Virus record (IMG/VR): IMGVR_UViG_3300005077_000001
Location: 96,001 to 160,000 of that record
DNA length: 64,000 bases
Source: a virus
Lineage: Duplodnaviria > Caudoviricetes
Strand: one strand, 5' to 3'
Part shown: positions 1-48,794 of the stretch, piece by piece
How the letters are laid out: each line of letters starts with the position of its first letter
Position numbering within the stretch: the stretch's first letter is position 1
Notes under the pieces: generated by a model
What the model saw: only the letters and a program-made list of their open reading frames with translations
What the model was told of the DNA's origin: nothing
Database searches by the model: none
Made by a program: the position numbers and the translations under genes

Positions 1-79
1 TAATTACATTACAAAGCGTTTACGACAATTAGAATCACAAGGCAGGTATGCTAAAGGAGCACTAGTGCCTTCTGCTTAA
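1..79 (+). CDS. 3' end of an upstream gene (partial)
   Basis: Frame 2 reads NYITKRLRQLESQGRYAKGALVPSA* with TAA at 77-79, followed by GAGGT RBS for the next gene. Confidence 0.6.
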   Translation, partial: NYITKRLRQLESQGRYAKGALVPSA

Positions 80-88
80 GAGGTAAAA

Positions 89-625
89 ATGATTGATCCT
101 GCTTTTATAGATGATTATACTAGATTACAAAAGCAAATGGTCTTGGATTTGAGTAAGCAAGTGACCATAGGGTTACCTCCACTAGAGGAGGAATGTCCTA
201 ACTGTGCTTATACAGACCCAGATAATTCTTCTTTAGGAAGTTTTATAGATTTTGGTAGTCCAGTGGTAGTTTTTTCTGGTACTAGTTGTGAGCGTACAAT
301 AGCTCCTACCCCATTTAAAAGAACATGTAAAGTATGTAGTGGTAAAGGAAAATTGACTTGTGCACAAGAAGTTGTGGTACCTGCTATGGTTGCTAAATCT
401 CAAATAGGATTACCAGATTCTCCGGCGGGTATAGTGTCTCAAAAAACATATCGGGTTAAAACAGATATTGCATACTATGATTATTTTGATGAAGCTGTGT
501 ATTATATTATTGATTCTAAAAAATATGAAAAAATAAAACCTCCAATAAAAAGAGGTATGGGAGATAATTACGGGGTAGTTGAAGTATTTGTTGGGAGTGT
601 AGATGAACGAGCAAGTATTAGTTAA
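89..625 (+). CDS. Putative head-tail joining/neck protein with two CxxC motifs
   Basis: 178-aa ORF with RBS; CPNC and CKVC pairs; C-terminal YIIDSKKYEKIKP..EVFV resembles head-closure beta-barrels; position upstream of tail genes. Confidence 0.45.
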   Translation: MIDPAFIDDYTRLQKQMVLDLSKQVTIGLPPLEEECPNCAYTDPDNSSLGSFIDFGSPVVVFSGTSCERTIAPTPFKRTCKVCSGKGKLTCAQEVVVPAMVAKSQIGLPDSPAGIVSQKTYRVKTDIAYYDYFDEAVYYIIDSKKYEKIKPPIKRGMGDNYGVVEVFVGSVDERASIS

Positions 626-1229
626 ATCTAAACAAATAACTGATGATTTACGTAATCATATTCTAAATTATTTAAAGTCAGAAGGTGCTGGCGGTAAAAA
701 AATAGTAGCTGCTTTTATGTCTGAGTTTGAGAATTTAGCTTATCGTTCGCCGCCAGACGACCCAACAAACATTATTAATCACATGGATTTTTTAGAGAAC
801 CACATAAAAAATACTTTAGATTCTAGTATTCATATAGATGAAAATGGTAATATTAATTTAGGAATTTGTACTGATACTCTGTTAGGTTTTAAAGAAGATA
901 AGTCTTCTTTGAAACACCATCCACAGCCTTTAAAGTGGGTGGTGTACTTAATAAGAGGAATTGCTGGAGAGTATGCATTTGTTAATAATAATACTTATTT
1001 TTTGAAATATAGTAAGCCTATGCCCGCTCAATATAATGGCGGTTTCTTGGTAGGAAAATGGCTTTGGGATAGAGAAGGATGGAATATTGTTGGTGATTTT
1101 GCTAGATTTAGGCACCCGGCTTCTAAAGCATCACCCATCCCATTTTTTAAAAATGTATTAGAAAAAATAAATTTACATTCTTTAATGGATGAAGCCAAAG
1201 GGAGTTTCAGAACTGATGGAACTAATTAG
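603..1229 (+). CDS. Hypothetical virion morphogenesis (neck region) protein
   Basis: 208-aa ORF overlapping both neighbours; assignment from synteny only. Confidence 0.4.
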   Translation: MNEQVLVKSKQITDDLRNHILNYLKSEGAGGKKIVAAFMSEFENLAYRSPPDDPTNIINHMDFLENHIKNTLDSSIHIDENGNINLGICTDTLLGFKEDKSSLKHHPQPLKWVVYLIRGIAGEYAFVNNNTYFLKYSKPMPAQYNGGFLVGKWLWDREGWNIVGDFARFRHPASKASPIPFFKNVLEKINLHSLMDEAKGSFRTDGTN

Positions 1230-2031
1230 ATGTATTAAATATAGTATTTTATTATATATACAGAATTGTATTTTAGCAACTAATTATGCTGAAGAAAATA
1301 CAGATATGTCATTAACTAGTATTGGAAATAATACTTATAATATTGAATATGACGATAATTGGGTAGATATATTTGATAGGGGAGAATATGCTGGTCAAGG
1401 AGAAGGAAGAGGGCTGGTGTATTTTAATACCCCTACTATATTATCTAATTATTCTTGTTCTTTTGTAAATGAACAAACTCGTATGGTTACTGTTTATGAT
1501 GACGTAGATACTGTAGTATCTGGATGTAGAATTAATTATAAAAAAGGACAAATAGTATATGATGGGCCACAAATTCCTTCAACAATAGATTATTATTGGA
1601 ATTACGTATCTACTATAGATGGATGGCCTCACGAAGATTTACCTCAACTGCCTATAGTTTCTGTTTTAGAGCAAGATTTTGATACTGTAGGGATTCAATT
1701 AGGCGGAGGAGATAAAACTAGGCAAAGTTGGCATATAGAACTTTTTGCAAATAATAAAGGAGAAAGAGATGATTTACGGTCTATTATTTATGATGGCCTT
1801 AATCTACGTTCTTGTCCATTATATGCATTTTCTAAAGGTATTCCATTAGATAAAAATGGATTTTTTAATAATAATTTCGATTCTTCACTCATACAAAATA
1901 GATCAAATATACAGTTTTTAGATGTTAAAACTTCTATTACTGGATTACCTGATTGGGGATTTTGGCAGACAGAAACAGTTAATAAATTTAGAGCAAGTAT
2001 TAATTTTTCTACACAAGTATATTATGGTTAA
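1216..2031 (+). CDS. Putative tail terminator/completion protein
   Basis: C-terminal LPQLPIVSV...SWHIELFANNKGERDDLRSIIYDGL pattern typical of tail terminators; directly before the tube gene; internal ATG at 1216 preferred over 1189. Confidence 0.55.
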   Translation: MELIRCIKYSILLYIQNCILATNYAEENTDMSLTSIGNNTYNIEYDDNWVDIFDRGEYAGQGEGRGLVYFNTPTILSNYSCSFVNEQTRMVTVYDDVDTVVSGCRINYKKGQIVYDGPQIPSTIDYYWNYVSTIDGWPHEDLPQLPIVSVLEQDFDTVGIQLGGGDKTRQSWHIELFANNKGERDDLRSIIYDGLNLRSCPLYAFSKGIPLDKNGFFNNNFDSSLIQNRSNIQFLDVKTSITGLPDWGFWQTETVNKFRASINFSTQVYYG

Positions 2032-2127
2032 TATTAACTAATTAACTAACTTTCTAGTGTAAGATAGATAATAAAAAAAAGGAAAAGGAGTAAGCCCCCG
2101 GTAAGTTTTAGACTTTTTTAAGTAACC

Positions 2128-2135
2128 TAGGAGGA
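2128..2135 (+). promoter_or_regulatory. Strong Shine-Dalgarno (TAGGAGGA) for major tail protein
   Basis: 11 nt upstream of ATG 2147. Confidence 0.7.
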
Positions 2136-2146
2136 AAGAAAGTCAT

Positions 2147-3886
2147 ATGGCTAAACGAACTAGAATAATTTATGCTTCTCAAAGTGTTCGTTGTAATGGG
2201 CACCTTCTGTATCGTGTACAGACTTTAGGTTCCAACACCACTTTCACTTCTGAGAACTTGTTTGAATTAGGCCATTTAGACATCATCGACGTTGTTGATG
2301 ACGTACCTGCGGTTGCTGTTGCTATTGATACTAACGATTTTGGTAGTGTTGAGACAATGGCATCTCTTGCTGGTATGAATATGATGGTGATGTCTGGTGT
2401 AGTTAGTGCAAGTTCTGCTTATCTTAGAGCACCTGCTGCCTGCACCGGTTCTGGTACTACGTACTATCACGGTGTTGGAATTGATGACTTTGGGCTAAGC
2501 AATGGCGTAGCTATTTGGGCCCCTGTTCAGAAAGAAGGCAATCTAGGTACTCTAGATGATGAAATAGAAATGACTCTATTCATGAACAAAGTTTTCGTAA
2601 ACTCCATTACACTTACTTATAATGTTGGTGCTAATGCGACAGAAAACTATGCAGCTGAAACTGACAATAAAATGTGGCTTATGAACGGTGCTAAATTCAT
2701 CTCACAAGAGGAATGGGATATTACTGATCCTAGTAATAGCTATGCTCTAGCTCTTGGGCTAACAGCATTAAATCCAATTCCTACTCTGTCTGATTGTAAA
2801 TTAGCATTCCTGGCTTATACTGATGATGGCGTAGAAGGTGTTACAGTTAAAACATCAACCGAGCGTGATGGTACTGTATACCCAATCGCAGCCGGAACAG
2901 TATCTACTGCTGGAGAATTTAGATACAACGCAACTCTCCAGACTGTCATTCTGCCTAGTGACGCGGCTTCTCTATGGACTGGCGACGTAACTTTTAAAGT
3001 ACGTTATGCTGCTCCTGCTTATGCTGCTGTTGCTAATGCAGTAAGTGCAAATACAGCAACTAGAGTTTATGCTAAGTATTTTGAGCTAACAAGTGCAGAT
3101 ACTGAACCAGATCATCCATCAACTCACTATGCTGAGGATATCGGTGGTCTTCGTCAAGGTCAAGTTGAAGTATTTATTGTAGATCCAGACGTAGTAACTT
3201 CTGAGTCTGATTGGGAAAATATGTGGCGTGTTCAGACTGTAACTATTACAGCTACTCCTGCACGTACTCCATTGAATGAGCTTGGTCATATCAGACCTTA
3301 TACTCGTACAATGAACTTCCCAGTTGAAATTACTTCTAACGTTGCTACTACAGCTTCTGATATGGAAAACTTCGTAAAGTTCTGTGGTAAAACCTGGACT
3401 GACTTCGAAGATGGTGGTACTGGAGTAGATCTTTCTTTGGCTCATATTATGGCTAAGAAAAATCTTATTCTAGTTGTAAAAATTTACAGCCAGACCAATG
3501 AGGAAGCTGGTGGAAATAATAGAACTCGTAAGGCTCTTATTAGTACATTAGCGGGCAAAGAATTCTTTGATCCTAATAATGATAGTATTGGAGCTGGTAG
3601 CTGGTCTAATGGTAAGGGTTTCTACCCTGCTTATGATCAGGATGTTTCAGGTTATGTTGGGTCTTGTACTTCACCTCCTCGTGAAAGACCGTTGAAGTGC
3701 GTAATTGTGCCTGATCTAAAGATCACGGCTGAAAATTACCAGAACTCAATTGGTGGTGGTCGTGGTGGTGGTACCAATGCTACTCAGGAATTCAACTTCC
3801 GTTCAACCAATAAGCTGTTCGTTGTTAAAGGCGAAGTAGCTATTACGGATCTTGCTTGCCTTGAGAGAAACCCAATCAATCCATAA
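2147..3886 (+). CDS. Major tail tube protein with internally duplicated tube domain
   Basis: 579 aa; strong RBS and own terminator; RVQT-x13-ELGH occurs twice (2213-2275, 3227-3289); lies upstream of chaperones and tape measure gene. Confidence 0.75.
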   Translation: MAKRTRIIYASQSVRCNGHLLYRVQTLGSNTTFTSENLFELGHLDIIDVVDDVPAVAVAIDTNDFGSVETMASLAGMNMMVMSGVVSASSAYLRAPAACTGSGTTYYHGVGIDDFGLSNGVAIWAPVQKEGNLGTLDDEIEMTLFMNKVFVNSITLTYNVGANATENYAAETDNKMWLMNGAKFISQEEWDITDPSNSYALALGLTALNPIPTLSDCKLAFLAYTDDGVEGVTVKTSTERDGTVYPIAAGTVSTAGEFRYNATLQTVILPSDAASLWTGDVTFKVRYAAPAYAAVANAVSANTATRVYAKYFELTSADTEPDHPSTHYAEDIGGLRQGQVEVFIVDPDVVTSESDWENMWRVQTVTITATPARTPLNELGHIRPYTRTMNFPVEITSNVATTASDMENFVKFCGKTWTDFEDGGTGVDLSLAHIMAKKNLILVVKIYSQTNEEAGGNNRTRKALISTLAGKEFFDPNNDSIGAGSWSNGKGFYPAYDQDVSGYVGSCTSPPRERPLKCVIVPDLKITAENYQNSIGGGRGGGTNATQEFNFRSTNKLFVVKGEVAITDLACLERNPINP

Positions 3887-3906
3887 TTGAATTGATGGTA
3901 TGCGAT

Positions 3907-3938
3907 AAAGGAGTAGCCTTAGTGCTACTCCTTTTTTT
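3907..3938 (+). terminator. Rho-independent terminator
   Basis: GGAGTAGC-cttagt-GCTACTCC stem-loop (3910-3931) followed by T7. Confidence 0.85.
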
Positions 3939-3974
3939 CACTTCTCATAAAAAGTAAAGGAGGTCGGAAGGGCA

Positions 3975-4265
3975 ATGGATAAGAAATCTTATCAAGAAAA
4001 CTCTCGCCGTAAATATAATTCATTTGTAGATAAAAGAAAAGATATTATGTTAGGCAAAATTCTTACGATTGTTGAAGTTTTAGTTACTAATAAACTACAA
4101 TGGGAAAAAACAAGGAAACATCTATTAGGGATTTGTAATGATTTTGTTAGAGAAAATCAATTTGAATTAGAAAAGAATTATGTTATGGAATATGTAGATT
4201 CTAAAGAAGATCTTATTGAAGTTACTCATTTAAACAAAAATGGAGGAGGGGACTCTAATGGCTAA
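3975..4265 (+). CDS. Small hypothetical protein
   Basis: 96-aa ORF with AAAGGAGGT RBS. Confidence 0.6.
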   Translation: MDKKSYQENSRRKYNSFVDKRKDIMLGKILTIVEVLVTNKLQWEKTRKHLLGICNDFVRENQFELEKNYVMEYVDSKEDLIEVTHLNKNGGGDSNG

Positions 4266-4968
4266 TAAGGATTTAAAGGATGTATTTGAAAACGGCCGCT
4301 CGTTTCAAATGGAAGATTCTGGATTAATGTATTACATTATCCCACCTGATGCTGAATCTGCTGCTAAAGCTAAGTGGCACTACAGTAAAATGTATAGTAA
4401 AGCTTTTATGGATGGAGTAAGCACTGTTGCTGAAATGAGAGATGCTCTACTTAAAAGAGGGCTAATAGGGGAAGCTTTCGATAGCAAACTGCAAGAACTT
4501 ATAAATGATCGTGATATTATGGTAAGTGAATTAGAAAGTGTATCTGATATAGATGAACGTGAAGCATTGGCAATTAAAATTGCGGAAAAAAGAGATGAAA
4601 TCTATGCATGGAGCCAACGTGCTAGTGCTCCATTATCACAAACTGCTGAAAGTTTGGCAGAAGACAGCCAAACAGACTTTCTTACTACATGTATGGTAGT
4701 GGGAGAGGACGGTAAGAAGATATGGGCAGACTACGATTCATTTGTTAAAGAAAAAGATCAGATGCTAGCAATGAGAGCTAGATACGAATGCATAATGTTT
4801 CTACAAGGTTTTGAATCAGATTTTCTTGAGAATTTACCAGAAAATAAAATTCTACGAGAAGTAATGGAAGAGAGACAGAAAGAAGCAGAAGCAGAAGCAG
4901 AAGAAGATGTAGAAGTTGAAGAAGAAAAACCAAAGAAGAAGAAAAGTACTAAAAAGAAAAATGATTAA
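4258..4968 (+). CDS. Putative tail assembly chaperone
   Basis: Helical acidic protein between tube and tape measure genes; GGAGGAGG RBS supports ATG 4258 (MANKDLK). Confidence 0.6.
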   Translation: MANKDLKDVFENGRSFQMEDSGLMYYIIPPDAESAAKAKWHYSKMYSKAFMDGVSTVAEMRDALLKRGLIGEAFDSKLQELINDRDIMVSELESVSDIDEREALAIKIAEKRDEIYAWSQRASAPLSQTAESLAEDSQTDFLTTCMVVGEDGKKIWADYDSFVKEKDQMLAMRARYECIMFLQGFESDFLENLPENKILREVMEERQKEAEAEAEEDVEVEEEKPKKKKSTKKKND

Positions 4969-4970
4969 TA

Positions 4971-6050
4971 ATGATAGATTTGAGTATAGATACTTTAGTA
5001 CAGAAAATTGAAGAAATTTCCAGTGGAGAATGTGTAAGGCACATAGAGGCAAATGACTCTTATGTGCTTTATACCTATCCTAATAAATATCAATTTAAGC
5101 TTGCCGATATAAAAGAAAAACAAACATATAAATTAGCTACAGATGATGGTTTTCCAACTATAGAACAGATGGAAAAACGATTAAGAGAAGGGGGTTTGTG
5201 GACTGAAACACACGAGATTAAATCAGAGGATTTACGAAGTAAGATAAAAGGATTACGAGTAGTTAAAGATGACCCATCCCTCACAAAAACAGAAAATAGA
5301 AAACATATTTTACAGCAATCAATTAATAAATATGAAAAAGAATTATGGGAATTAGAGTATATAAAAGATAGTAAACTAGACGAAACAGTGGAGCGGAAAT
5401 CTCGTCGTATTAGATACGATTATTTATGTTGGTTATGCGCGTTTGATCCATTTTCTAAAGATAAATTTTGGGATAAGTCCTTTGATGAATATCAAATAAT
5501 AGAAAATATATTAAAAACAGAGGTTTTAACTAACTTTATACAATTTATAGGTGGTCATGAACAAGAAGAAATTAGGTATATAGCTCGTAGCACTTATTGG
5601 AAAGTAAATTACCTAGTTTCACAAAAAAGCAATTCTCCTCTATTTAGTCGGTCTGTGTATGAAATGACCCCTGACCAGCTCAATTTATGTTATTGGAGTC
5701 AGTTCTATCAAAACATAAATGAGATGATGCCAGAAGACAGACCAGATGATGAAACAATAGATAACGATGAGGCATTGGATAAATGGCTAGAGGAGTATCA
5801 CAGGAATAAAAGCGAAGAACGTAAATCAGCAAGGCTTTCCTCATTTGGATCTAGTTCGGCAATGAACCAAAAAGAAGTTTTGGTATTTAGATCCAATCCA
5901 AATTACGAGAAAATTGAATATGATGAGCCACCTTCTACAGAAGGTAAATTATCAGACAGTGACACAAAAGAAAGTATGGACAAAAAAGGTATGCGTCTTA
6001 GGAGATTAATAAGACAGAAAAAAATGGAGAAAAACAAGAAAACTGATTAA
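4971..6050 (+). CDS. Putative second tail assembly chaperone
   Basis: 359-aa helical ORF whose TAA overlaps the tape measure ATG; synteny. Confidence 0.5.
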   Translation: MIDLSIDTLVQKIEEISSGECVRHIEANDSYVLYTYPNKYQFKLADIKEKQTYKLATDDGFPTIEQMEKRLREGGLWTETHEIKSEDLRSKIKGLRVVKDDPSLTKTENRKHILQQSINKYEKELWELEYIKDSKLDETVERKSRRIRYDYLCWLCAFDPFSKDKFWDKSFDEYQIIENILKTEVLTNFIQFIGGHEQEEIRYIARSTYWKVNYLVSQKSNSPLFSRSVYEMTPDQLNLCYWSQFYQNINEMMPEDRPDDETIDNDEALDKWLEEYHRNKSEERKSARLSSFGSSSAMNQKEVLVFRSNPNYEKIEYDEPPSTEGKLSDSDTKESMDKKGMRLRRLIRQKKMEKNKKTD

Positions 6051-9000
6051 TGGCTGAAGATTATACGTTTAATATAAAAATCAATATAACTCCAGAGATA
6101 AATCAAAGCGAACTTGCCAAGTTGTCTTCTCTAGATAAACATCAAAAAGTTTCTACTACTGATATGATGGCTTTAAGACGTACTATTTCTGCTGATAAAC
6201 CGATTACTAAACAAACTGAAGATAAACTATTTGATCATATGTCCAAACTTGAACAGAGAATTGAGCAATTAAAGCAAACCAATGTACAATCCTATGCTCC
6301 TGTATCTAATATATCAATTCGGAATTCTATGGAATCCATAGAGAAAACAATAGATAAAGCTAATCGCTTAAATGAAAAGCTACTTAATTCACAAAAAGAA
6401 TTAGGTCAACAGTTCCATTCCTCTAAACAAATGTCAGAAGAGCTGCGAAGAAGCCTTGAACAGCAAAGACAAAAATTTGTAGACTACGTGAGATTAAATG
6501 AATCAATTACTAAACCCACTCAATTAACTACATTTGCTGGAGAAAGAATACAACTAAAACCAGAACGTCCTCTAAAACCAATGGTAGCTCCAGATATGTT
6601 TTCAAAAGAAATTGAAAAACAATTTCAAAATCTACTTACTACAGCTAAGCAAGATTTAGCCAAAGAAATATTAAAATTTAAATACGCTTTCAATGACAGG
6701 TTAGGAGATATTACTTCTTCTTTACAAGAGGTAGGGTATAGTTCTCATATGAAGGCATTGGATCAAGTAAATAAAGTAAAGGATTTACTAGATCAAGTTA
6801 CTAGTTCAGAAGATTTAAAAGTGGTCGTTGATAATTTTAAATCTAAATCTAAACAGATGCAAAAAGATATTGTTGATATGAGGTATATGATTGATAAAGC
6901 ATCTACTGATTTTGGTACAGAATTAGGTAAAGAGATAGATAATATAAGAAAATCTTTTCAGAATTTTTATAGGGATTTCGTATTTACATTTGGCAAACCT
7001 AACTTCTTTGAACCTGCTGGTCCTATGTTTAGGGATGTTGCTTCCCAATCTATGAGACGTGGAGAGCGTTCACCCATAGGGGGTAGATACGTTGGAGATC
7101 CTAGGATTAAGTTTGATCAGTATGGGGCGGCTCAATACAATATTACTGATGTTAAAGCTTTAGGTCAAACTTTATTGGATTTGTTAAAACCCAATTATTT
7201 AGCAAAAGCTTTTGATTTGAAAAATGTAGATAAAGCACTTCAGAATCAAATAAATGATTATTTCACTAAAAATAATATTTCTAAAAAACTAGAAACTTTA
7301 ATATCTTATAGTATTCCTGATTTAAAAAGTATACATCAGGATATAGTAGATACCATCTCCAAACACCTAGAAAAAACGATGGATAATGGTAAAATAAATA
7401 AGATGGTAGATAAATATATGCAAGATGTTTTATCTGCTACAGAAAAATCACTTAAAATACCTTCTATAGCTAAAAGTCCTAGGGGTGCTGGAATAATAAG
7501 AGATGTAGAACGTGGTGAATACCTCACTATGGGGCAGTATTTAAGTGTCCAACCTTCAATCAATAGGTTGTATGATCAATACATTAACCCAATGTTCAAG
7601 ATGCTGTCTCGTACAGGGATTGAACAATCTAAACTTCCACAAGACTTAAAAAATCTTAGAAAACTAGTAAAGGATTATTGGGCGAGATCTAAATCTTTTG
7701 AAGGAACTGAAGGGGTTGGGGTTGGTACAGAATTAGCTTCAGCCGAAATTATTGATAGGGTAAAGGGGTCTTTCAAGATGATGGAAGACTATTTGAAGAA
7801 AGAGAAAGGCTCAAAGTCTATAAGATATATTAATGAGATAGAGAAACTTCGTAATAATTTCATGGAAGAATATGACAAAGCATTAAGAGAGTCTATACGT
7901 ACTACGATGGAAAGAGTATTCAAAGAATCTTTGATTAGGGGAGATGTAAAACTTCCTTCAAATCTAGAAAAAAAATACAGGTCAGAACTACAACAATATA
8001 TAGGAAAGGGGGTTAGAACTTATTTATTACCAGATGATATTCAAAAAGTCATTAAAGATCATTCAAAAGAAATAGAGAAGAAAGTTAATGCCATTGGGAA
8101 TATTAATTTAGAAACTACTTTAAATAAGCTATCAAAAGAAGAGGAACGTATCTTTGGTAAAAATGATTATAGTGTTAGACCAAAACAAAGAGTAATGGAA
8201 GAATTTGGTAAGTATTACCCAACAGATGTATATAAACTGATGATGCAAGTAACGAGATCAATGCAAGGTCAATTAAATGAGTTACAAAAAATAAGGAATA
8301 GTTTATCAGCAGCAGGAAGTAAAGGTAATGACTCTTATTTTCGTGAATTATTAGAGCAACATTTTAGACGAGTATTTGATCCTGTAAAAGAACGTATTCC
8401 TGAAGAGCATGAAGCTATGCAGAAACACGAAGTATATGGTAGGTATCGTACTATTACTTTACAACCAAAACTTCCTAGCATTGCTGAAGGCGAATCTTCT
8501 TACGGAGTACCTGTCGATTTACAAGCAGAGCGTAGATTCATTGTTCAGAGAAATCTGGAAATGGAAGAGTTGTTTGAAAAAGAATATATAAGAGGTATTA
8601 AAGATTTAGAAAAAAGACTTGGTCCTACAATTAGAATGTTGTCTACCATTGGTCTTAATGAAGCAGCTGCAGCTGGTAAGAGGGTATTTGGTCAAGATTT
8701 TGGTAAAGAATTTTTAGAATCTTTTCTAAAAAATAGAAAAGTTCATCCTTTTTCTTCTTATGATCCAAGAGAAACGGAAGCTTTTGGACAATCTATTAAT
8801 CCATCAAGACCTACTGGTGCAGCATGGTTAAGTTTAGCGGGCCCAGAATTTAATGCTATTCGTTCTGCAAGATCACACCAGATGATTTCTCGTGGAGAGT
8901 GGGGCCCTTATGGTACTGGGCTTAATGTAGTAACAGCATTGAAAGACGTATCTCAAGGCTATGAAGATGTATTTGAAATTGGTAAAAGGTTAAAAGAAAT

Positions 9001-12000
9001 AGCTACTTTTAAATTTAAAAAAATGGTAGTTCCAAATCTGAAGGGTAATGAAGATGAATTAGTGAACAGTATTAAAAATTATTTAGAAACTGTTGGTTCT
9101 GATATATTTGGTAAACCAATTAAAATTAAAGAATTAGCTGATGAAGTCTTTGTTAAAGATATAGCCAAAAGATGGGCGAAGGGGAAAGAGGGGTCTATTG
9201 AAGAGAATGTGCTCACACTATTAGAATCTTTTGTGGGTCACGAGGCTAGGAAACTATCTACAGGCCAAGTTCTTAAAGGAGTAGGTGCTTCTATATTTAG
9301 CAAGTACGGTGATGATTTAGAACAATCAATAATCAATAAATTTGTTAAAGGAATGAAGCCGAGGATAAAATTTGGAGATGTTGGTATTTTAAAGGGAGTT
9401 CCTAAGTCGTTTGAAGAATTATTCACTGAGATTATCAATTCTTCTAGACTTAATTTAGATCCTGCCAAAATAGATAAGGCCAAAGAACTTATCAAAGGAA
9501 CTCAAAACTTACCAATGCTTTCTTCAAAACACTTATCACAGTTTAATGTTTATCCTGTTGAATACGGAACTGGTAAGATTATGGGAACCCAAGGTAGTTT
9601 ATCCTTAGAGCAAAGGAAAAAATACCTATTTGATATGCTAGGTATCCCAATGTCTGATATTAGTACAGCCAAATCTATTTCTAAGCAGATAGAACTACTT
9701 GGAAATGATATGCAAAAAGTAAGAGATTTATATAAATCTACAGTTGGTGGAGGCCTAACAAAGGATGTTCCAATTGATTTAAGAATAGCTGCTTCATCCA
9801 TTGGCAAAAAATCTCGTTTAATTGGTGGTAATGTTGCAGAAGTAATAGCTAATAATATAATTGGTAATATTCGTTCTGCTCCTTTACAAGGAGAAACCAT
9901 TGTAGATCAAATTATTCGTCAACCCTTGGCAAAAATTATTACTGATACAAAAGCAACAGGGGAAGATGCTCGTAAGCTAGCTTCTTTATATAAAGATGTT
10001 TTAGGTCTTCGTGGTAAATACGGGGAAGAGTTCTTATCAGAAAGTCAGGGTAGGGTTGAAAAGACCATGGCTGGTATGATGCATATGATGATCATGAAAG
10101 AACCTAAACAGTATATTCCTAAAGGAGCAGCAGAGATAGAAGCTGGTAGATCCAAATTAACTATAGATCCTCACGCTTGGGTAGGCTTAAAGAAATTATT
10201 CGATGAGGAAAATAGTGCATTATTAAAAGAAATAAATTTAAATTCTGTACCTGATGCTAGAACTGCTGGGGCTTTATTATCTTCGTTCAGGTCTTTTTCA
10301 AAAAAAAGAGAAGCAGAATTAATGGAAGAGCTATCAAAAAATAAGATTGGTTTGTTAAACCGAGAATCTCTATTAAACCCTAATTACACAAATTATGTTT
10401 CACCTTTAGAAAGAGGATCTTTAAGCGCTGATTTAGGAGGCACTATCTTTGATCCTATGCATTTACCAAAACCAATTCTTTTGGAAATGCCTAAACCTAA
10501 CGAAGAATTAAGAAAAAGAATAGAGAAAGATATAAAAAGGCGAATAGAAAATAGGGAACAGGCTCTTCCATTAAGAGACTATATCGAGATTCCTGAAATA
10601 TCTGGAAGACAAGTATTGGTAAATGAAACTGGAGAAGTTATGCCAACATCAACTTCTAGGTATATGTCTGAGCTAATAGAGTCTACTAGGAAATATCATC
10701 AATTGCAAGATGTGTCAAAAGATCCTAAAATTATGGACATACAGAGGAAAGCCCTAACTGATTTTATTAGTGATAGTTATAATCAGATTCACGCTGAACG
10801 TAATTTAGATATAAAGAAAAAAATGATTAAACATTTTGAAGATCAAGTTTTACCTGTTATTGGTTCTTTACCTATGCCCTTATATTCTTCTGAATCTAAT
10901 TTAATTTTAGGTAAAGAAGGACCAGAACTTCCAACTATATATTCTAGAGTTGGGGCGGATTCTAAAACTAAATTGGAAAAAGAAATATCGAAGGGTATCA
11001 CTATACAAGATGCATATAATAGATATATCACTAAAATTACAGAAGGAAGTGAAGCAAGTAGATTAAACTATATGGCTCGTTTCTTGAGAAATACAATTGC
11101 CAGCCCTGTAATCTACTCTAAATCTCCACAATTAATAGGTCAACAGGTTTCTAGGGAAATTTTACCAGAAGGAGATAAAGAATTTGTAACTAAAACACTG
11201 CTATCTGATAAAAATGTACAAAATTTAGTAACAAAATTTAGTGCACTTAAACCTGAGTATGATAAGAATAAACAACTGACTGGTTTGTATCCTCAAAATA
11301 TTATTGATGAGCAAGTTTTATTAGCTAGACGAAATGCTTATGATTTCTATCGTGAGTTAACAAATTCAATATTTGGTAAAAGTGGTGTTATTAGTGATAC
11401 TTTGCTTAAGAAGAAAGTGCCTGGACTATATTTGACTGCTCAATCAAGACCTTACGACCCTACTGATGCTATGAAATCAGGTGTTGAATTACTAAATAAA
11501 TATTCATCAGAAATAGAAAATTCTGATAAGCTAAAAGAAGATTTAAGGCAACAACTGGATGCTGTACAGAAATTTAAAAAGGAAAACCCTTTGGCTTGGA
11601 TTAAAAGAGATGAGGTCCGTATCGGAGAACGTGATTTACGGGAACTTCAAAAAGCAGGACAAGCCACACCAGAATTGCAAAAGCAAGTTAAAGATGTGTA
11701 TGCAATAATTCATAGACAACCTTCTACAGATGAGTTCAGTTTTAAATCTATGAAATTAAAAATAGATGATATGCAAAAGGATTTATCTGGAGTTGCAGTT
11801 GTTCCTGGATTACCTTTAGGCGACTATGACGCTATGAGAGCTATGGAAAATACCTATAAAGCACTTGAAGGAGTACGAAGTAAACAAACTAGCCAAGTAG
11901 AAGAACTTTATAAATTGGGAAAAACAGAAACTGATCCTGTGGTTAGGCGTCTCCGTAAAAGTATTGAAGAAATAGATAAAGCTGTAAGAGACTTAATACC

Positions 12001-15000
12001 TATATATCATGAGCAACAGCAGAATTTAGATTTTGATGGTGATATGATAGCTCTTCATGCTGCTACATTAAAGAATACTAATGATGAGTTGGAGAAAATT
12101 AATATAGAACAAACTCTCAGAACTGGGGATACAAGGAGATTCCTATATGAAGACTTCAGCAAAGTAATGGCAGAGAAATGGTCGCTAGGTAAAAAAGGAG
12201 ATAAACCGTCTGATGAGGAGTTAGCTGTATTTAAGAATTTTGCTCCGTCTTTATCCTCCCAATGGAATTCTATGGACGTAACTCAGCAATTTACCGATAA
12301 AGCTAAAAAGGACTTATTAAAATTTCATGGTACGGATGCTCCTACTGTGGCAGAAGATGCTTTGAAACACTTTGTTCATAAGATTGATATGGGCCAAGTT
12401 TACGAACAATTTAATAGGATTGGTTTATCTTATCGTGGATTAAGTGCAGAGGAAGCTGGACTTACTCCTAAAATGAGTGAAAATTATAATCTCCTATTAG
12501 CGGAATTTTTACGCTATGTAGTACAAAAGGCTATTGGAGGTAAACATGGATCAGAAGGAGCAGATTTAGCTCCTATGGTTCAAAAAGCGTTTTTCACAGG
12601 GAATTTGGATTTTCTGGCCGGTAAAGGAAAGAATGCTCTATTTGGAGAACAAGAAGAAGCCCTTACAAAGTATAGAATGAAGTATTTGAAACCGTTGTCA
12701 CTTGCTGAATTACAAAAAGAAGCAGAATCTTATGGTATTGATCCAGGAGTAAAAAATAGAGAGCAATTAATAAAAGAGATTGTTAAAAAAACATCTTTTA
12801 GATCTATGTTTGAGAACGTATTTGATACTATCAAAAGACTTACTTTAGCAAATATACGAGAATTATATGAAAAAGGAGCTATTGGAGACATATCATTATC
12901 TAAAAAAGGTAGATTAGGGACAGCAAAGTATCTGAGTGGCCAGTATAATAAATCTATAGATGAGCTATATGATACTTTGAAAGTTTCGTTTAAAGATGGT
13001 AACTTAAATATTACAATGGGTAATAAAGATATTACCCAAGATGTTATAAACCGTGTATCAAAGGATATTGGGGTAGAGTTATCACCAAAAGAGGCTGCTT
13101 TCAGATTAGCTGCTCATGGGGAAGGGTTATACAGCGCAATTGTAGGAGAACCTGGGAAAACGCAAAAACGTATATTAGATTACGGTCCTTCAACTTCCCA
13201 ACTATCAAAAGGATTACAGCCACTTTATGTTTTGAAAAGTTCTGGTGGTGCAGACTTAGCCACAAATAGATATCTAAAATATAAACCAGGGTTTACATCT
13301 GAATATATGCCTGGAGGTCCAGAAGCTGGATATGCTGAAATAGTAGATTCTATTTTAAGAAACAGAATGGGAGCAAATATCCCAATCGACGATGCGTTGG
13401 GTACTTTCAGCAAAATAGGAGGCTCCAAAAACTTTGTAAGTCCAGTTATTAAGATATATGATGAATTTAAAGATACCTATGATAAATTAATGTCAGTAAT
13501 GACAGATGATATCTATAAAATTGAAGGGTTAACAAAACAAACTAAATCTTTTAATAGAGAAATGGATGGATTTGCAGGTAATATGGCAAAAGCGGGGGTT
13601 AAAGCATTTTATAATAAAGAAGAGAACCAATTGTATTTATCTAGTCAAATTAAATCTGATTTTGATGAATCTCTCAATAAATATGCATTAGGTAAAACAG
13701 ATAAAGAAAAAGCCGAAGCCAGGGAATCATTAAGTAAGGCTGCACAAGAAATAAAAGAAGTTCTATCTTATGCTGCAGCACATAAATACATACAAGCAAG
13801 TAATTCAGATTTAGCTAATAGTATACGTGCTAACATAACTAAATATGCTGATCCAAAATCTAATCAATCACTGAAAGTGGATACTCTTATTGAACGATTG
13901 GTTTCTTTACATCAATATACTCCTATTATTGTTAAATGGTTAGAATTAATTGGTAAACCAGAATTAGTATCTCAACCAAAAATAACTATAGCTAGAGAAT
14001 TATCTAAGCATCCACAAATAAGAAAAGAAGCTTTAGAAGAAGAAGTAGCTTCCCTGTTAAGTGGAAGTGGAGGTTTTTCCACCGGTATATATCCGTTATT
14101 TAAATACAGAAAGAAGATAAACCCATTCAACGAGCTGCTATTTGGTTTAGCTAGTAAGCAGCCTGTTCAAATGCAAGCATTTTACCCATTGACCTCAGAA
14201 TCTTGGTCAAATAAAATGTCTGATATGCAATACAATCTTAATTCTGGAGAATGGTATGATATTTTTAAGGGTCACCCTTCTTTACGTGATATAGAATTAC
14301 CTTCTGGTATGACTTCTTACAAAGATGTGTTTTCTTTTTTACGGTCAATGAAAAAATACGGGGGATCAAAAGGAGCAACTCATTATTTAAATAGCATCAT
14401 AAAAGATCGTAACAGATCTTTATTAGAGAATATGGGAATTGGCATACCTGAAGATTGGGATAAAATGAGGCTATGGGCAACAGAACCTTTGGTACAAGGT
14501 GGAATAAGCGAGGCAGCTACTACTACTAGCTGGCCTTTTTTACCATACCCTAGTAATATAAAATTACCCATAGATACTCCCACTGGAAGAGCACGTCGCA
14601 GTATTGAATCCATATATAGTAAAGCATTTGATTTATCTAGAAAAGATTGGACAAATGTATTCAAAGATTTTGATAAACCACTAGCAGATGAAATTCAATC
14701 TTTACCAAAGGATACAAATGTGATAGAACATTTACAAGATACAGGGATGTATGGGCAAAATAAAGGATACACCAGATATATAAATATGATTTTCAAACGA
14801 AGAATGGAGCAGTTACTAAAATCATTAGGCGAAGAGGTTCCTGAATTTTATGACATGCGTTTTCAAAAAGCAAAACAAGAATTTTTAAAAGTATTGGAAA
14901 ATAGAGCAAAACAAGGGAAAGGTTTTGGTTGGTTATGGGGCCCATCCACTGGAGGAACTTGGGGCGGTGATAAGTTTGGCCCTGAAGAAGCATATGGGGA

Positions 15001-18000
15001 TAATCCTCCAGCAAACATAATTAAACGTTGGCAAATGCAGTCTTTTTCTCCTGCCGATTATCCTCACATTAAACCGATATTTGATTATCCTAAATTTTTA
15101 GAGACTGATGCTGCTCTTCAATATAAGAGTCATGGACATCAGATTAAGCTTAGTGCAGTTCCATTAAGATGGGGTAATATTGAGATTGGATATGGAACTA
15201 AAAATAAACCCTTAGACCCAGATAAAGCAAATGCCATTTATAAACCTTTCATTGAACAAGTTAATGAAGAATTAGTTCCTAAGCTAAAAGATAAGGTGAA
15301 AGAAATTCATCATAGGATTGATTTATTTGGAGAATGGGGCGGTAAAAAAGATAAGCTTTTGTGGTTTGATGCAAAAATTGGAAATAAACCATTATCAGTT
15401 GATCAATTTAAAGAACTAGCTTCAAGTCTTGGTTTAAAAACTCCTGATGAATTATACCGTGGGAAAGTAACTAAGCAAATAGTAGAAGATGTATTCAGAG
15501 AAAAACCTCCATTCACAGAGTTAGAGGAAGGTGTAGTTGCTAAGGCATTAGAACGTAAAAAAGGTGATTGGTATGACATGGCAAAGTTTAAAACTAAACC
15601 ATATCTAGTGAATGAAGAAAACAGATATCCTTGGTTTGATGAGAAGTCAGCTGGTGAAAATATTGAAAGAAAAATGAAGAAAGTTTTAGATTACCAGTTA
15701 AAAGCTTTTTCCCCATTAAGAAAACCCAAGGGGACTCAATTAGAAGAGGGTATGTATCCTGAGGAATGGCCCACAATTGAAGTATCCAAAAAGAGAGCAG
15801 AACAGTATTTAAAAGGGTTAGATGATAAGTTTTATCGGCCGGCTGAAGAAGCCAGTATGTATAAAAAGGGTACTGAATTTTTAGTAAAAGCGGCTGGTTT
15901 ATCTGATATACCTTCCGTTGTAAAAGATGCTGTTGTTTTATCTCAAGAAGAATTAAAGAATAGTATCTTTGGTAAAGATATGCCAAAATTACCATATGAC
16001 CCTGTGTTGGTATTGAATACAAGAAAACAAAAACCATTATATCCTGAAGCAGTACCTATTTCTAAAGAAGCAGGTTTTATGTTTCCAGAGACTTCAGAAC
16101 CTGGACAAGTAGGTAGATTCGTGCTCCATAAGCATGACGCATTAAGGGCAGGACCTCATCATGATTTAAGATTTGAAGTAGGAGGTCAATTACAATCTTT
16201 TGCTATACCACAACTAGTTCCAACTGATAAAGGCAAAATAAGATTAGCAATTGGTCCAACTGCTCACCATTCATTAGATTACTATGAAAAAGGAGATTAC
16301 GAAATTCCAAAAGGTTTTTATGGTGCTGGACGTATGCGTACAATGGATGTTGGTACAGCTGTATTAGAAAGCTTTAAACCAGATCATATTACTGTAAAAT
16401 TAACCGGGGTAAGAGGTTTAGCTGATGGTACATATTCACTAGTAAAATTTGATCCGAAAGGAGAGAAACCTAAACAACAGCAATGGTTATTTCAAAAAAT
16501 AAGAGATATAGAAGAGAGGGACCCTGTTAGATTTGCAGAAATATATACTGATAAAGTAGAAAAAGAACAGGATAAAACTTTAAATAAATTAGGGGATAAA
16601 TACAGAGACTTTCTTTCTCCTTTGACAAAATATGAAGAAAAAACATATTCTAATTATCCCACACTAGAGTTAGATTCTTATTTCAATGCTCCTGGACAAA
16701 TGAGGGGAAGGTATTCAAAAGGGAAAATACGAACAGGAAAACCTAGAAATATGGAAGAAATGAGGGCTCTCTTAGCTACTTATGACCACGAGGTTGGTCA
16801 TGCAGCTATAGAGAAATCCTATCCTGATATCGCTGAAAATATCATGTCTGGAAAAGCTGTATTTCCTGGTGTTCATATGGATAAGATTAGAGGCTATTTT
16901 GCAGCTAAATATGGGGGCGATAGAGGAGAAGGAGAAGATCCAGCAATTAAAGCTCTAGAAGAAGCAATTGCAGGTACCAGAGAAGAAGATCAAGATATTT
17001 TAAATGAACTTAGCAAATTACGGGATGAATCTTTTGGTAAAGCTGGAATGGTACCAATAGATCCTAATGCCCTCCAAGAACTAAAATATATCAGACGTTC
17101 TTTTAGTCCCACACAAAAACAAGATTTTGCTATTACAGTAGATTTAAATGATGATAAAGGAGCCCTCTCCTCTTTGAGTTCTTCCTTACAATCATTGGTC
17201 AGGCGATCAATATCAAAAGCTTATGGGCCATATGAGTTGCATGTAGATGCAGCATCTAGAGGTAATCCTGGGCCAGCGGGAGCTGGTGGTATAATAACAA
17301 GTCCTCGCGGAGGGGTTGTAACATCTTTTAGTAAACCAATCGGTGATATGACTAACAGCATGGCTGAGTATGTAGGATTAATTTTAGGATTACAAGAAGC
17401 GTATCAAAAAGGTATTCGTAGTTTAGAAGTTATTTCTGATTCTCAATCAATGGTTAATCAACTTCTAGGTACATATAAAACTAGAAGTCAAAATATTATT
17501 CCATTAAAAGCTAGGGTAGATCAAATTTCAAGTAAGTTTGGTAATGTGGATTTCCAATGGAAACCAAGAACCTTTCTTTCGGATGCAGATAAATTAGCTA
17601 ATGAGACTTTGGATTCTGCTCACAACAAAATTAATCCTGATGATGCAGTAAAGAGAGTAAAGAATTTAATAGATACTAAACAAATAAAGACTAATGATAC
17701 TCTTTTTAAAACTGCTTATTCAAAAGATAAGTACATGGATTACTTATCAAAAGGTTTTGCTGTGGGTATGCTAGCTAATGATGATATATATATGCCTTCA
17801 GGTATAGTAGAAAAGTTTAAAAAAGATTATTCTAAAAACACTCCTGATTTACAATCAGTATCAGAAGCTATACTTCGTACCTATTCTCATGAACGAACTC
17901 ATAAAGATATAAACACTGCTCCTTCTAATATCTACCGTAAATACAAATCTTTAGCAATTGACCCTCGATATTCAAATGCAATTGAATCCTTCATACATGA

Positions 18001-21000
18001 GGTAATACAAGGACCATCTAAGGATATATACTTAAGACAATTTGAAAGGGCTCAGATAAAATCTGGAGAACGACCTGGAGATTACGTATCTTCACCCGCT
18101 GCACGATGGGAAGCATTACAGGAATTAATTGCAGGACATCCTGAAATGAAATCTGCATCTGCTTATAATAAGGATATATCTTTAATAAGGTCTTCCTTTT
18201 ATAGAGATTTGAGTAGAGAAAGCATACAGCATTATGCTCCTGGGCGTAAAGCAAAAGAAAAACCTGATTTCAAATCAAAAGATTATATTAAAATGGTGGG
18301 AGCTAGTGCTGGTGGTTATGAAGTTGGTAATATTCTGTCTAGTATGCTCTCTCTAGATGATATCAAAAACTTATATAGCTTAATGAATGAGCTTACTGGG
18401 TTGGACCCTCTTAGAGTGAAAGGATCAGATCCTGAAAAATCTAAGAGCTTAAGAGACAAAATAGAAAAATTAAGAAGTATGACTGGTTCTAGAGGAGCAA
18501 TGCCTGGTGAAGAACAAGCTGCAAAAGAACGAATAAGGGTATTAGAAGAAAGACTTAAGGAACTTGGTGGTAATGAAAATAGATTGGAAACCCTGCATGG
18601 AATTACGTCTACTGCATTGCCTTTTGCTGGGGCTGCGATTGGAGCTGGCGTACAATATGCTACTACTGGGCTATTTTCAGAAAAAGGCATACCAAGGTCT
18701 TCCTGGGCTAATTTGGCAGCGGCTGGTGTTGGAAGTGTAGTTGGAGCTGGTGGTTTACCTTTATTGTTAAATAAACTTCCATGGGCTGTTCCACATCTAC
18801 CGTGGCACCTTATAGGAGCTGGGGCTGGAGCTTTAGGAGGGTATGGGCTATTACAACTTTATAGAAAATTATCTAATAAGCCAACTAAGCAGTCTTATGT
18901 ACCAACAAGTATAGGTACACCTATTGAAGGTAAACTAGGTTGGTCTACCGATAGTGGGTTTTTCAAAGTAGGAGCAGAAGGTTCAATAGGGTTACCTCCT
19001 CTTTTAGGAATGTCAGGGGATGAATATTTAGAGAAAGATATAAATACATTATTCAATCCAGAGGTTAGACAATCCCGTTTTGTTGGATTACCTCAAAGAC
19101 TAGTGGATCGTATAGATCCAAGAATTTCTGGATTACTGAGGTCTAGCTTGTCTTCAGATCAACTATTTAATATAGGAGCGAATGTAGGTGTTGGTCCAAT
19201 TAGTTTAGGATTTGAGTCAAATTTAGGATCTTATAATTTAGGTTCCTTACCTTATGAGTCTCGGCTTAAGCCACGTATTTCTTTACGAGAAAAAAACTTA
19301 GATGAATTTTCTACAGATTATTTAAATAGAAAACCAGGAATACATCCTCATTATAAGCAGGGTATTTCTTCTGCCTTGGAAATGATGTCTCCAATGGGTA
19401 GTTCTGATTTTCTTGATATTATACTATCTGGTACGGATATGCTAGATGATCTTCTATTACGCATGCCAAAATTAAAAGGACCCAAAGTTAAGCAGACGAA
19501 TAGAATATTTAATTTGACAAGAGATATAACTCCTGAAACTCCTATCAAAGAGCAAGCTCTATCTTTAAAAGAAGTACATGATCAATTAAGAAAAGGGTGG
19601 GTAGCAATAAAAGAAGGAATCGACCAATTTCCTGGTTCAACTTTAACTACTCCTAGCTTTTCTGTTTCTTCTATAAAAGATTTCTTTTCTAACCAATGGA
19701 AAGGTTTAAAAAATGCTATAAACACATTTTCTTCTTTTACTCCTACTAAGAATTTAAGGAATGAAATAAATAGTTTAAGATCTGGTCCTATAGATAATAC
19801 TATATTACAAAAAATAATAGGATTAGAAGAAGAGGTTATAGGTCGTAGAATTGGGATTTTAAAATCTATATCTTCATACAATCCTCGTCGTAGGGCTGAA
19901 TTAGAAAATATTTTTAAGTATGCTAATACTTTTAAACCAGGTTATCAATTTGATGTACAAGGTCCGGGTGGATGGGAAAAAATATTCTTTGAAGAATATC
20001 TTAAACGTGGTGGAAAAGAAACTAGTGAAGTCCATGTTGCTGCGAGAGAATTAAATAAAATGGGAATAAATAATTCTCAACAGCTAAGGGCGTTACAAAA
20101 CATAGTAGGTCCTGGAAAAGCATATGAAACAATTGAGAGTGTTACTCCTATTCCGGTAGGCCAAAGAGTTGCTAATGATGCATTTTCCTTAATAAAAACT
20201 GTTCCTAGTTCTATCAAAAATGCTGGTACATTTATGATTGATGCCTTTAAAGATATAGGAAGCTTTATTTCTACTTTTGTTAAAGGTAAAGATGCATCAG
20301 GCCAAGTATTTAATAGGTCAGCCTATTTTAGTAATGTAATTTCTGAATTACAAGATACTCCTGAAAGATATAGCACAATAACTGGAACTTTATTAAAGAA
20401 TCCAAAAGCCGATACAGTATATTCGCCAAAGATAATGGGACATTTAGTTGAATTAGCCAAATCATCAGTCTATAGGCCGTTAAATGCTCTAGGTATGGGA
20501 CTTGGAAAATTTATTGAACTAGATTTGGATAATAACATCGAGCCTGGAGTTAAAGGTCTATGGAAAAACTATATTACAAATCAATCTGGTGCGGATATTA
20601 AATCAGGATTAAATAGGCTATTCGGTTGGAAAGGCGGAGTAGTAAACACTACTACTGAAAATCTAAGAAATATAAAAGATTCTACTATTGGAGCAGCAAA
20701 GGTTTTTAGTAAAGAATATGGTCCTTCAAGAACTTGGGATTTATTAAAGAGCTTTTATACGGTTCCAGCTTATGGTGTTGGGGAGGCTATGCAAGGTGTT
20801 GGAGGAGCAATAAAAAGCGGTAATATACTAGATATTGCTAAGACTGTTGGATATACTGGTTTTCAAGCATTACCGTTCTTGGGGCATGTAGTATCTGGAG
20901 GATTTGAATTAAGAGACCAATTGCGACAAGGCCATAGATTAATTCCTTCTATAATTGGTACAAGTGCGAAAGAGTCAATTACTTATGGTACTACCGGCCT

Positions 21001-46927: not shown

Positions 46928-46953
46928 CTATACTTAAAAAAGGAATTACAAGG

Positions 46954-48033: not shown

Positions 48034-48034
48034 A

Positions 48035-48781: not shown

Positions 48782-48794
48782 AAAGGAAGAGAAT

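Follow-up and report, generated by a model that had tools for sequence, protein, structure and literature searches.

A ligase, an ASCH barrel, a 3'-phosphoesterase and an RNase H in the giant tape-measure protein of a large phage: candidate virion-borne enzymes of nucleic acid repair

Why the tape-measure gene of a large phage should encode enzymes that trim and join the ends of nucleic acids, and where such enzymes would act, is the question raised by a giant open reading frame (ORF) in the IMG/VR record IMGVR_UViG_3300005077_000001 (hereafter G000; 256,335 bp, 33% G+C, estimated completeness 97%). The stretch of DNA that we analyzed, called the window in the following, comprises bases 96001-160000 of this record (64,000 bp), and positions are given in its numbering. 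In the ORF list, the giant ORF extends over 36.9 kb (6050-42997, plus strand) and encodes 12,315 residues; the part considered here corresponds to residues ~3001-3855 (window 15044-17614). A previous interpretation of this DNA, made from the letters alone (the sequence-only reading), had proposed that a ligase, a 3'-phosphoesterase (PE) and an RNase H located there constitute a single, pre-packaged heal-and-seal module. The reading that we favor, and that we hold with slightly less than even confidence, is that the virion delivers these enzymes as the cargo carried by a giant polyvalent tape-measure protein, in which the ligase, an ASCH barrel and the PE would form a heal-and-seal unit resembling LigD, and the RNase H would be a separate item.

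Enzyme domains within a giant tape-measure ORF

The carrier of these enzymes possesses a tape-measure core, a PhageMin_Tail domain (PF10145) at residues 5630-5826 (95 bits). A tblastn search with residues 5560-6100 retrieved tape-measure genes from siphophages of Bacillus and Lactococcus (~29% identity, E ~1e-35), and this segment matches 174 phage records annotated as tape measure. Gly-rich hydrophobic segments are found at residues 4222, 5006, 5426, and 7323. Closer to the N-terminus, the sequence NLDFDGD at residue 1994 (DFDGD, nt 12029-12043) is the sole occurrence of the motif [NAG][AL]D[FY]DGD in the genome, and this motif search points to a two-barrel RNA polymerase (RNAP) region with the approximate limits 8687-13249 (plus strand). 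Its segments are 54-56% identical to those of two relatives (G001 and G002, see below). Based on the DFDGD motif, the PhageMin_Tail core and the matches to siphophage tape-measure genes, we identify the giant ORF as a putative fusion of a tape-measure protein with a virion RNAP. One ORF combines the tape-measure core with several unrelated catalytic domains, represented by the RNAP motif, the ligase, the PE, the RNase H, and kinase-like and nucleotidyltransferase (NTase)-like sequences. The enzyme stretch had been placed directly downstream of the RNAP; it does lie downstream, at a distance of about 600 residues, to which no domain is assigned, between the polymerase region and the ligase.

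The first enzyme of the stretch is an ATP-dependent RNA-ligase NTase domain of the Rnl2/Rnl5-like type (residues 2999-3192; window 15044-15625, plus strand). In a Pfam hmmscan of residues 1-5000, RNA_ligase (PF09414) matched residues 3026-3180 with 32.7 bits (cut-off 27) over positions 8-170 of the 171 positions of the model; in a search of the genome with PF09414, the same domain scored 39.4 bits, compared to 39.5 bits for the ligase of G001 and just 21.4 bits for that of a further relative, P0003. The ligase motifs I (YK3026SHG), III (FGE3095W), IIIa (WF3106D3107), IV (E3160GVVAK), and V (K3179FK3181) are all present, and their residues are invariant across the window, G001, and P0003. PF09414 also accounted for 74 of the 100 nearest clusters in a protein-language-model search with the ligase. 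No match was obtained when the ligase was compared with PDB sequences by phmmer and profile searches, or when it was used alone in a word-index search for homologues; in the alignment with T4 Rnl2 the register is weakly supported, at motifs III and IIIa only.

To compare folds, we used an AlphaFold2 (AF2) model of residues 2995-3530, built with a 10-row alignment of relatives, whose mean predicted local distance difference test score (pLDDT) is 69.6. Foldseek/VIA comparisons of the NTase domain gave T4 Rnl2 (Z 10.2), the Naegleria enzyme NgrRnl (an Rnl5; 9.1), and the trypanosome ligase REL1 (8.7) as structural matches, whereas DNA ligases reached Z values of at most 6.4 (LigD ligase, 6.4; phage DNA ligase, 5.5). 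The modeled fold thus appears nearest to that of RNA ligases, ahead of both capping enzymes and DNA ligases. We rejected an assignment of the domain as capping enzyme: among the Foldseek/VIA matches listed, RNA ligases were followed by DNA ligases and no capping enzyme occurred. T4 Rnl2 and NgrRnl, the best structural matches, belong to the same Pfam family and share motifs I, III, IIIa, IV, and V with the embedded ligase. They differ from it in what adjoins the catalytic domain: the all-helical C-terminal domain (T4_Rnl2_C), which Rnl2 requires for nick sealing, found no Pfam match here, the N-terminal domain of Rnl5 is not evident, and an ASCH-like beta barrel comes next.

This ASCH or PUA-like barrel (residues 3234-3327; window 15749-16030, plus strand; AF2 model, pLDDT 71-91) occupies the place where the C-terminal domain of Rnl2 would sit. 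VIA matched it to E. coli YqfB (Z 10.0; root-mean-square deviation [rmsd] 2.5 Å, 87 of 102 residues), an ASCH protein of E. faecalis (3iuw; Z 8.8), and ZmASCH (Z 7.6). Pfam gave no ASCH match on residues 3215-3345, and a single, irrelevant and weak match to PG_binding_4 (E 0.035); it is by the predicted fold alone that the barrel can be assigned to ASCH.

The barrel is followed by a LigD-type PE (residues 3348-3528; window 16091-16633, plus strand). Its Pfam core, LigD_N (PF13298; residues 3360-3465), scored 53.9 bits against a cut-off of 31.1, and NCBIfam and PHROGs concur with Pfam for this domain as well as for the RNase H. By phmmer, the domain matches PEs of archaea and bacteria with solved structures (3p43, E 3.5e-14; 3n9b, E 1.2e-12), and its AF2 model superimposes on 3p43 with Z 16.3 (rmsd 1.9 Å over 123 residues). 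Residues H3362, H3370, D3372, R3374, H3407, and Y3411 align with the essential residues of MbaPE and CkoPE, of which two His and the Asp serve Mn binding, the Arg and a further His bind phosphate, and a Tyr completes the set; mutating these positions abolishes activity or, in the case of the Tyr, reduces it (PMC3082917). All six are invariant in the aligned fragments of five relatives. Directly 5' of the PE barrel, the segment YPEAVPISKEAGFMFP (window 16040-16090, residues 3331-3346) is almost invariant in all relatives; its position corresponds to that of the N-peptide, which crystal structures of PE show as disordered and which 3'-phosphatase activity requires.

The last of the three enzymes is an RNase HI of the archaeal/actinobacterial type (residues 3729-3855; window 17234-17614, plus strand; PF13456, phrog_531). 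RVT_3/RNase H (PF13456) matched residues 3729-3852 with 77.1 bits, above the curated cut-off, and phmmer identified Rv2228c (3hst; 2e-24) and the RNase HI of Halobacterium (5e-19) as relatives. Its DEDD tetrad (D3733, E3773, D3797, and D3847) was found by alignment to Rv2228c. The three domains named by the sequence-only reading are consequently where it had placed them; all exceed the curated cut-offs of Pfam and have intact catalytic residues. Their number was set too low, since the stretch also holds the ASCH barrel and a module with the zincin-like HExxH motif.

This module is one of two that bracket the RNase H; none lies within the ligase-ASCH-PE segment. Module 1 (residues 3561-3700; window 16730-17149, plus strand) carries HEVGH at residue 3580 and, ~55 residues further on, an invariant Glu in the sequence ALEEAIAG, and module 2 (residues 3870-4075; window 17657-18274, plus strand) carries HERTH at residue 3947. 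Alignment showed the two to be paralogues that share the HExxH motif and, again at a distance of ~55 residues, the invariant Glu in A(L/M)(E/Q)ExxAG. In all relatives, enzyme domains are repeatedly followed by HExxH motifs. The combination of HExxH with a downstream Glu agrees with what has been published for the zincin-like peptidases of polyvalent proteins (PMC5512222). On the strength of the motif only, we regard these modules as putative zincin-like peptidases. Further motifs of this kind are present in the C-terminal third of the protein: HELFGH (33710-33727, residue 9221), an HExxxH variant, and HEINH (35450-35464, residue 9801), located just upstream of a kinase-like domain. The HExxxH variant is one of the forms described for the peptidases of polyvalent proteins (PMC5512222).

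Conservation among relatives and cysteine content

Homologues of the giant protein are rare. Searches of protein sets of 5.8 billion and 1.84 billion sequences yielded fragments and one long relative only; a scan of IMG/VR with the single protein as query found nothing, and alignment queries found G001 (a 545,322-bp record with a 14,711-residue ORF) and G002 (211,229 bp; 13,616 residues). The other relatives are P0003, a protein of at least 6,667 residues that is ended by the end of its metagenome contig, L002, a 24-kb ENA contig on which the gene is broken by frameshifts, and the short fragments L003 and L005. A tblastn comparison with 50,697 GenBank phage records gave no match for the ligase (E up to 1), none for the PE (E up to 1e-3), and no homologue of the RNAP region; the RNase H was matched by one unannotated fragment only. 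In each of the four long relatives (G001, G002, L002, and P0003) the order ligase, ASCH-PE, zincin module, RNase H is kept. In every relative that we recovered, the three enzymes are intact and conserved and have been inherited together in colinear order. Since the 15044-17614 stretch sits in one ORF common to these relatives, it is not a chance feature.

Over residues 1-3870, mean identity to G001 and G002 is 47%, and the ligase (67.5%), ASCH (66.5%), and PE (65%) domains are the best conserved part of this region. Identity of the RNase H is 41%, and that of the zincin modules 38-45%. The catalytic domains might in principle be relics that provide mere length in a molecular ruler; a tape measure does need length, and the score of the ligase is modest. 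That their catalytic residues have stayed intact and invariant in relatives with so little overall identity, and that these domains are the best conserved of the N-terminal third, makes us consider this explanation very improbable.

The pattern of conservation also bears on the claim that all three enzymes belong to a single module. One part of it stands: ligase, ASCH, and PE are contiguous and conserved at 65-68%. The RNase H is set apart, flanked by zincin modules and conserved at 41%. As no peptidase module lies within ligase-ASCH-PE and the RNase H is bracketed on both sides, we distinguish two units in the stretch. This division can be taken further by supposing that all of the enzymes share a carrier and no pathway, so that the RNase H might destroy RNA:DNA hybrids of defense systems (retron/DRT products or CRISPR R-loops), and ligase and PE would have unrelated targets. 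Polyvalent proteins typically join biochemically unrelated domains (PMC5512222), and besides the separate position and faster evolution of the RNase H, this proposal can draw on other unrelated cargo in the relatives (a DnaJ domain in G001 and an unconfirmed GNAT-looking stretch in G002) and on the kinase-like domain that could be inserted between ligase and ASCH-PE in P0003. It has to contend with a ligase-ASCH-PE segment that has the same order in five of five proteins, near-equal conservation of its parts and no internal peptidase module, and with the known functional pairing of ligase and PE in LigD (PMC3082917). We regard completely independent cargo as rather unlikely.

The giant protein is almost devoid of cysteine. 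It contains 2 Cys in 12,315 residues (0.02%), compared to an average of 1.61% elsewhere in the genome (128 other plus-strand ORFs of at least 150 residues); both are part of the sequence LIGCCREG near residue 8800, with none before it, so that residues 1-4100, which include all N-terminal enzyme domains, have zero Cys. The giant proteins of relatives contain 2 Cys in 14,632, 0 in 6,667, and 8 in 13,616 residues, and gp96 of phage P23-45 has 0 in 5,002. A protein that is kept in the tail would be expected to show such near-absence of Cys. Its extension across the enzyme domains argues that these share the fate of the tail-borne part and are not ordinary cytoplasmic enzymes.

The Cys content speaks against a late intracellular function as well, in which the N-terminal enzymes would act in the infected cell (e.g., in primer removal, genome maturation, or replication), either as part of a precursor that is not yet assembled or once separated from it by cleavage, and would not be delivered by the virion; a Cys-free region is left unexplained for a purely cytoplasmic enzyme. 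RNase H and ligase are the classic enzymes of lagging-strand synthesis, and neither G000 nor G002 possesses a DNA ligase of its own. The DdrB protein of phage P1 is processed before packaging (PMC5512222); the N-terminal enzyme of the P23-45 tape-measure protein, however, is used after delivery (PMC10770324). The ligase here is of the RNA type, and G001 retains the embedded ligase despite having a separate NAD+-dependent DNA ligase (LigA) of 683 residues. We therefore judge a late function improbable. Because of this separate enzyme, the embedded ligase is not the replicative ligase of G001, and a role as replicative DNA ligase was rejected as unlikely on account of the same LigA and of the RNA-type ligase fold. 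Canonical non-homologous end joining (NHEJ) was likewise rejected: G000, G001, and G002 contain neither Ku nor PF01068, and the embedded ligase is not of the LigD type.

Candidate substrates and the accessory kinase and nucleotidyltransferase

Under the reading that we favor, a tape-measure protein would have accreted an N-terminal two-barrel RNAP along with a series of enzyme domains that are unrelated to one another and have zincin-like modules between them. It would be the tape-measure counterpart of the polyvalent proteins that enter with the DNA of phages and plasmids. The giant protein would be held in the tail, exit at infection, and enter the cell with the leading DNA, and the zincin modules would probably cut it into working pieces. 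In LigD, the PE takes off 3'-phosphates and cuts 3'-ribonucleotide runs back until the single ribonucleotide favored by NHEJ ligases is left (PMC3082917). By the same chemistry, the embedded PE would strip 3'-phosphates and shorten ribonucleotide runs to leave a ligatable 3'-OH; the ASCH barrel may grip the RNA strand, standing in for the missing C-terminal domain of Rnl2, and the Rnl2/Rnl5-type ligase would, in a duplex, join RNA that ends in a 3'-OH to a 5'-phosphate. The RNase HI would clear RNA from RNA:DNA hybrids. RNase H leaves 3'-OH and 5'-phosphate ends, and ligases of the Rnl2 and Rnl5 types seal duplex nicks with an RNA 3'-OH strand, unlike Rnl1, the ligase of tRNA repair. On the incoming phage genome, where the polymerase of the same protein would be at work, the likeliest substrates would be nicks and gaps with RNA ends as well as R-loops. 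We favor the incoming genome and its RNA:DNA hybrids, since this enzyme set is self-consistent with the fused polymerase, needs no kinase, and fits G001 and G002; our preference for it over tRNA as substrate is a modest one.

The same ligase-ASCH-PE unit could instead be injected for RNA repair, rejoining host or phage tRNAs or mRNAs that anticodon nucleases or other abortive-infection RNases have cleaved, before the phage expresses its genes, with the help of a kinase and CCA-type NTases where these are present and without involvement of the RNase H. Its ligase belongs to a family of RNA ligases and not of DNA ligases, and the ASCH fold is tied to RNA metabolism. P0003 has the order NTase-NTase-zincin-ligase-kinase-ASCH-PE: two full PolyA_pol/CCA-type NTases and a zincin module immediately precede the ligase, and a 178-residue kinase-like domain is inserted between ligase and ASCH-PE. 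The window retains distal homologues of these enzymes. Its kinase-like domain (residues ~9925-10060; window 35822-36229, plus strand) is homologous to the P0003 kinase (pairwise E 2e-6), and its NTase head (residues ~10250-10330, with GGGVRD at residue 10276; window 36797-37039, plus strand; PF01743, 17.4 bits, below cut-off) is a remnant that BLAST matched to both PolyA_pol domains of P0003. The phage also has genes for tRNA-Lys(UUU), -Asn, -Leu, and -Met. Jumbo phages often encode RNA ligase, kinase, phosphoesterase, and CCA enzymes for tRNA repair, as free enzymes (PMC7824862).

Several observations speak against RNA repair. Both kinase and NTase, which the sequence-only reading had taken for partners of the three enzymes, are absent from the complete proteins of G001 and G002, which keep ligase-ASCH-PE without them; the two domains are accessory and not fixed partners. 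The kinases of the window and of P0003 give sub-threshold matches to the ABC1 atypical kinases (16 bits for the window domain) and show G-loop, VAIK-like, and DxxxxN-like motifs; given these features of protein kinases (eukaryotic protein kinase [ePK]/ABC1-like), an assignment as P-loop polynucleotide kinase was rejected. A P-loop 5'-polynucleotide kinase coupled to the ligase was not found in the ligase-PE-RNase H stretch. Small AAA_33 kinases are encoded elsewhere in the genomes, and AAA_33 is a generic family. The papers on PE considered here treat the removal of 3'-phosphates and the resection of ribonucleosides on DNA primer-templates and leave 2',3'-cyclic phosphates unmentioned, and the Rnl2/Rnl5-type ligase would be suited to duplex nicks. 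In our view, injected RNA repair is unlikely, and of the alternatives it is the one to be taken most seriously.

A number of points count against the reading that we favor. The hidden Markov model score of the ligase is modest, its part of the AF2 model is of medium confidence (pLDDT 55-89), a single-sequence AF2 prediction of the region reached a pLDDT of just 38, and hhalign of the ligase with T4 Rnl2 gave no significant alignment. Among Pfam and PDB profiles, none matches the zincin modules. The reading further supposes that residues 1-4100 are present in the virion and enter the cell, and it presupposes nicks, gaps, or RNA in the packaged genome. The domain order of P0003 points to RNA repair; together with the RNA-associated ASCH fold and the phage tRNA genes it would fit a pre-emptive RNA repair, and the genes for tRNA-Lys(UUU), -Asn, -Leu, and -Met are a possible sign of pressure from anticodon nucleases. 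Of the pre-packaged repair system envisaged by the sequence-only reading, the intact and co-inherited enzymes, their setting in a tape-measure/virion-RNAP fusion with low Cys content and the LigD-like pairing of ligase and PE find support; the single module and the parts given to NTase and kinase do not, and the reversal of tRNA or mRNA cleavage or an action against defense systems would be hypothetical roles.

Known systems and genomic surroundings

Injection by phages is known for polymerases, anti-restriction proteins, and ADP-ribosyltransferases. The closest precedent for the carrier is gp96 of phage P23-45 (5,002 residues), a giant, Cys-free tape-measure protein that has an N-terminal DFDGD two-barrel RNAP, a metallopeptidase, and membrane segments (PMC10770324). 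The virion RNAP fused to it carries out the transcription of pre-early genes after delivery, and the authors propose that it works at the pore formed by the tape-measure protein (PMC10770324). The giant ORF, 2.5 times longer, has no detectable sequence similarity to gp96 (best E 0.07), for which no ligase, PE, ASCH, or RNase H has been reported (PMC10770324). A second precedent is provided by the polyvalent proteins that phages and conjugative elements encode (Iyer et al. 2017, PMC5512222), in which many unrelated enzyme domains are joined in one polypeptide and interspersed with zincin-like HExxH(+Glu) modules, and which have a late or virion gene context and are predicted to be delivered with the DNA. 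They are far smaller, with 2-15 domains, and the zincin modules described here differ in matching no Pfam model. In the survey of these proteins, the terms "tape measure," RNase H, and LigD are not mentioned, and the authors report never having seen RNA ligases in association with the 2H phosphoesterase domains (PMC5512222). The type of carrier is thus known, in the form of virion enzymes fused to tape-measure proteins and of polyvalent proteins; its cargo and scale are not. An injected ligase, 3'-end-healing enzyme, or RNase H is described neither in that survey (PMC5512222) nor in the P23-45 study (PMC10770324).

For the cargo, bacterial LigD (LIG + PE + POL) offers the nearest comparison. 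Here as there, a covalent nucleotidyltransferase ligase is fused to a PE domain, alike in its fold and in its six active-site residues, 3' ribonucleotides or phosphates would be trimmed before sealing, and a polymerase that adds ribonucleotides (in our case the putative RNAP) is part of the polypeptide. In a shape search of the ESM Atlas, the other natural proteins combining ligase and PE all belonged, among the matches returned, to the LigD family. The differences are an Rnl2/Rnl5-like ligase in place of DNA_ligase_A (Z 10.2 vs. 6.4), the lack of an OB domain, of a primase-polymerase, and of Ku in the three genomes, and the setting in a virion protein. The RNA heal-and-seal systems (T4 Pnkp with Rnl1/Rnl2, bacterial Pnkp-Hen1, and fungal/plant Trl1) likewise place an enzyme of the RNA-ligase family beside a 3'-end-healing phosphoesterase. 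Fungal tRNA ligase Trl1 has the order ligase-kinase-phosphoesterase, which the ligase-kinase-(ASCH)-phosphoesterase order of P0003 resembles. These systems differ in that their phosphoesterases are of the HAD, calcineurin-like, or 2H type and not LigD-PE, and in that the kinase here is ePK-like, accessory, and missing in two relatives; moreover, they are free cytoplasmic proteins made after infection and not cargo of the virion.

In its boldest form, the favored reading would mean that jumbo and mega siphophages carry a pre-made repair workshop, composed of polymerase, 3'-end trimmer, RNA-strand ligase, and RNase H, in a tail of ~2 micrometres. Active at the entry pore before phage gene expression, it would patch the incoming genome with RNA and seal it in a Ku-independent manner analogous to LigD, or else reverse attacks by host RNases or nickases. 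We consider this extended proposal possible and distinctly doubtful. If it holds, it would represent protein-borne counter-defense or genome maintenance of a form that has not been described for any virus. Should the enzymes be delivered in active form, infection by some very large phages would include, in its first minutes, repair or remodeling of nucleic acid ends by pre-made proteins. This would bear on the survival of 200-550-kb genomes during their slow entry through a very long tail, on the neutralization of nucleases before phages can express genes, and on a second evolution of LigD-like chemistry, on an RNA-ligase scaffold. A compact, Cys-free ligase-ASCH-PE enzyme may also find use as a reagent.

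The C-terminal part of the giant ORF of G001 contains a DnaJ J-domain (residues ~12582-12638, L013; 49.9 bits), through which host Hsp70 may be recruited for refolding the ejected protein or drawing it in. The GNAT acetyltransferase-looking stretch of G002 lies right after the RNase H of its giant ORF (P0155, residues ~870-960) and has no match in Pfam. The tRNA genes of G000, Met(CAT), Asn(GTT), Leu(TAA), and Lys(TTT), are located outside the window, at positions 6100-6349 and 10910-10985 of the G000 record; they may supplement low-GC codon usage or replace tRNAs targeted by nucleases.

Nearly all ORFs that neighbor the giant ORF (window 1-6050 and 43010-64000) are without a PHROG family at E <=1e-3, and this also holds where the major tail protein, the chaperones, and the distal tail protein would be encoded. 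The phage lineage is far removed from cultured phages. Just 3' of the tail genes, a cluster of homing-endonuclease-like genes (45704-52787) comprises an HNH endonuclease (45704-46927; phrog_119, 1e-68) together with a pair of paralogous endonucleases of phrog_4645 that have a D5-like helix-turn-helix (48681-49889 and 51783-52787). With P23-45 (5,002 residues, ~800-nm tail) as a ruler of ~1.5-1.6 Å per residue, and if the whole protein serves as the measure, the predicted tail would be ~1.9 micrometres long here and ~2.2-2.3 micrometres for the 14,711-residue protein of the 545-kb phage. Tails of such predicted length would far exceed any described phage tail.

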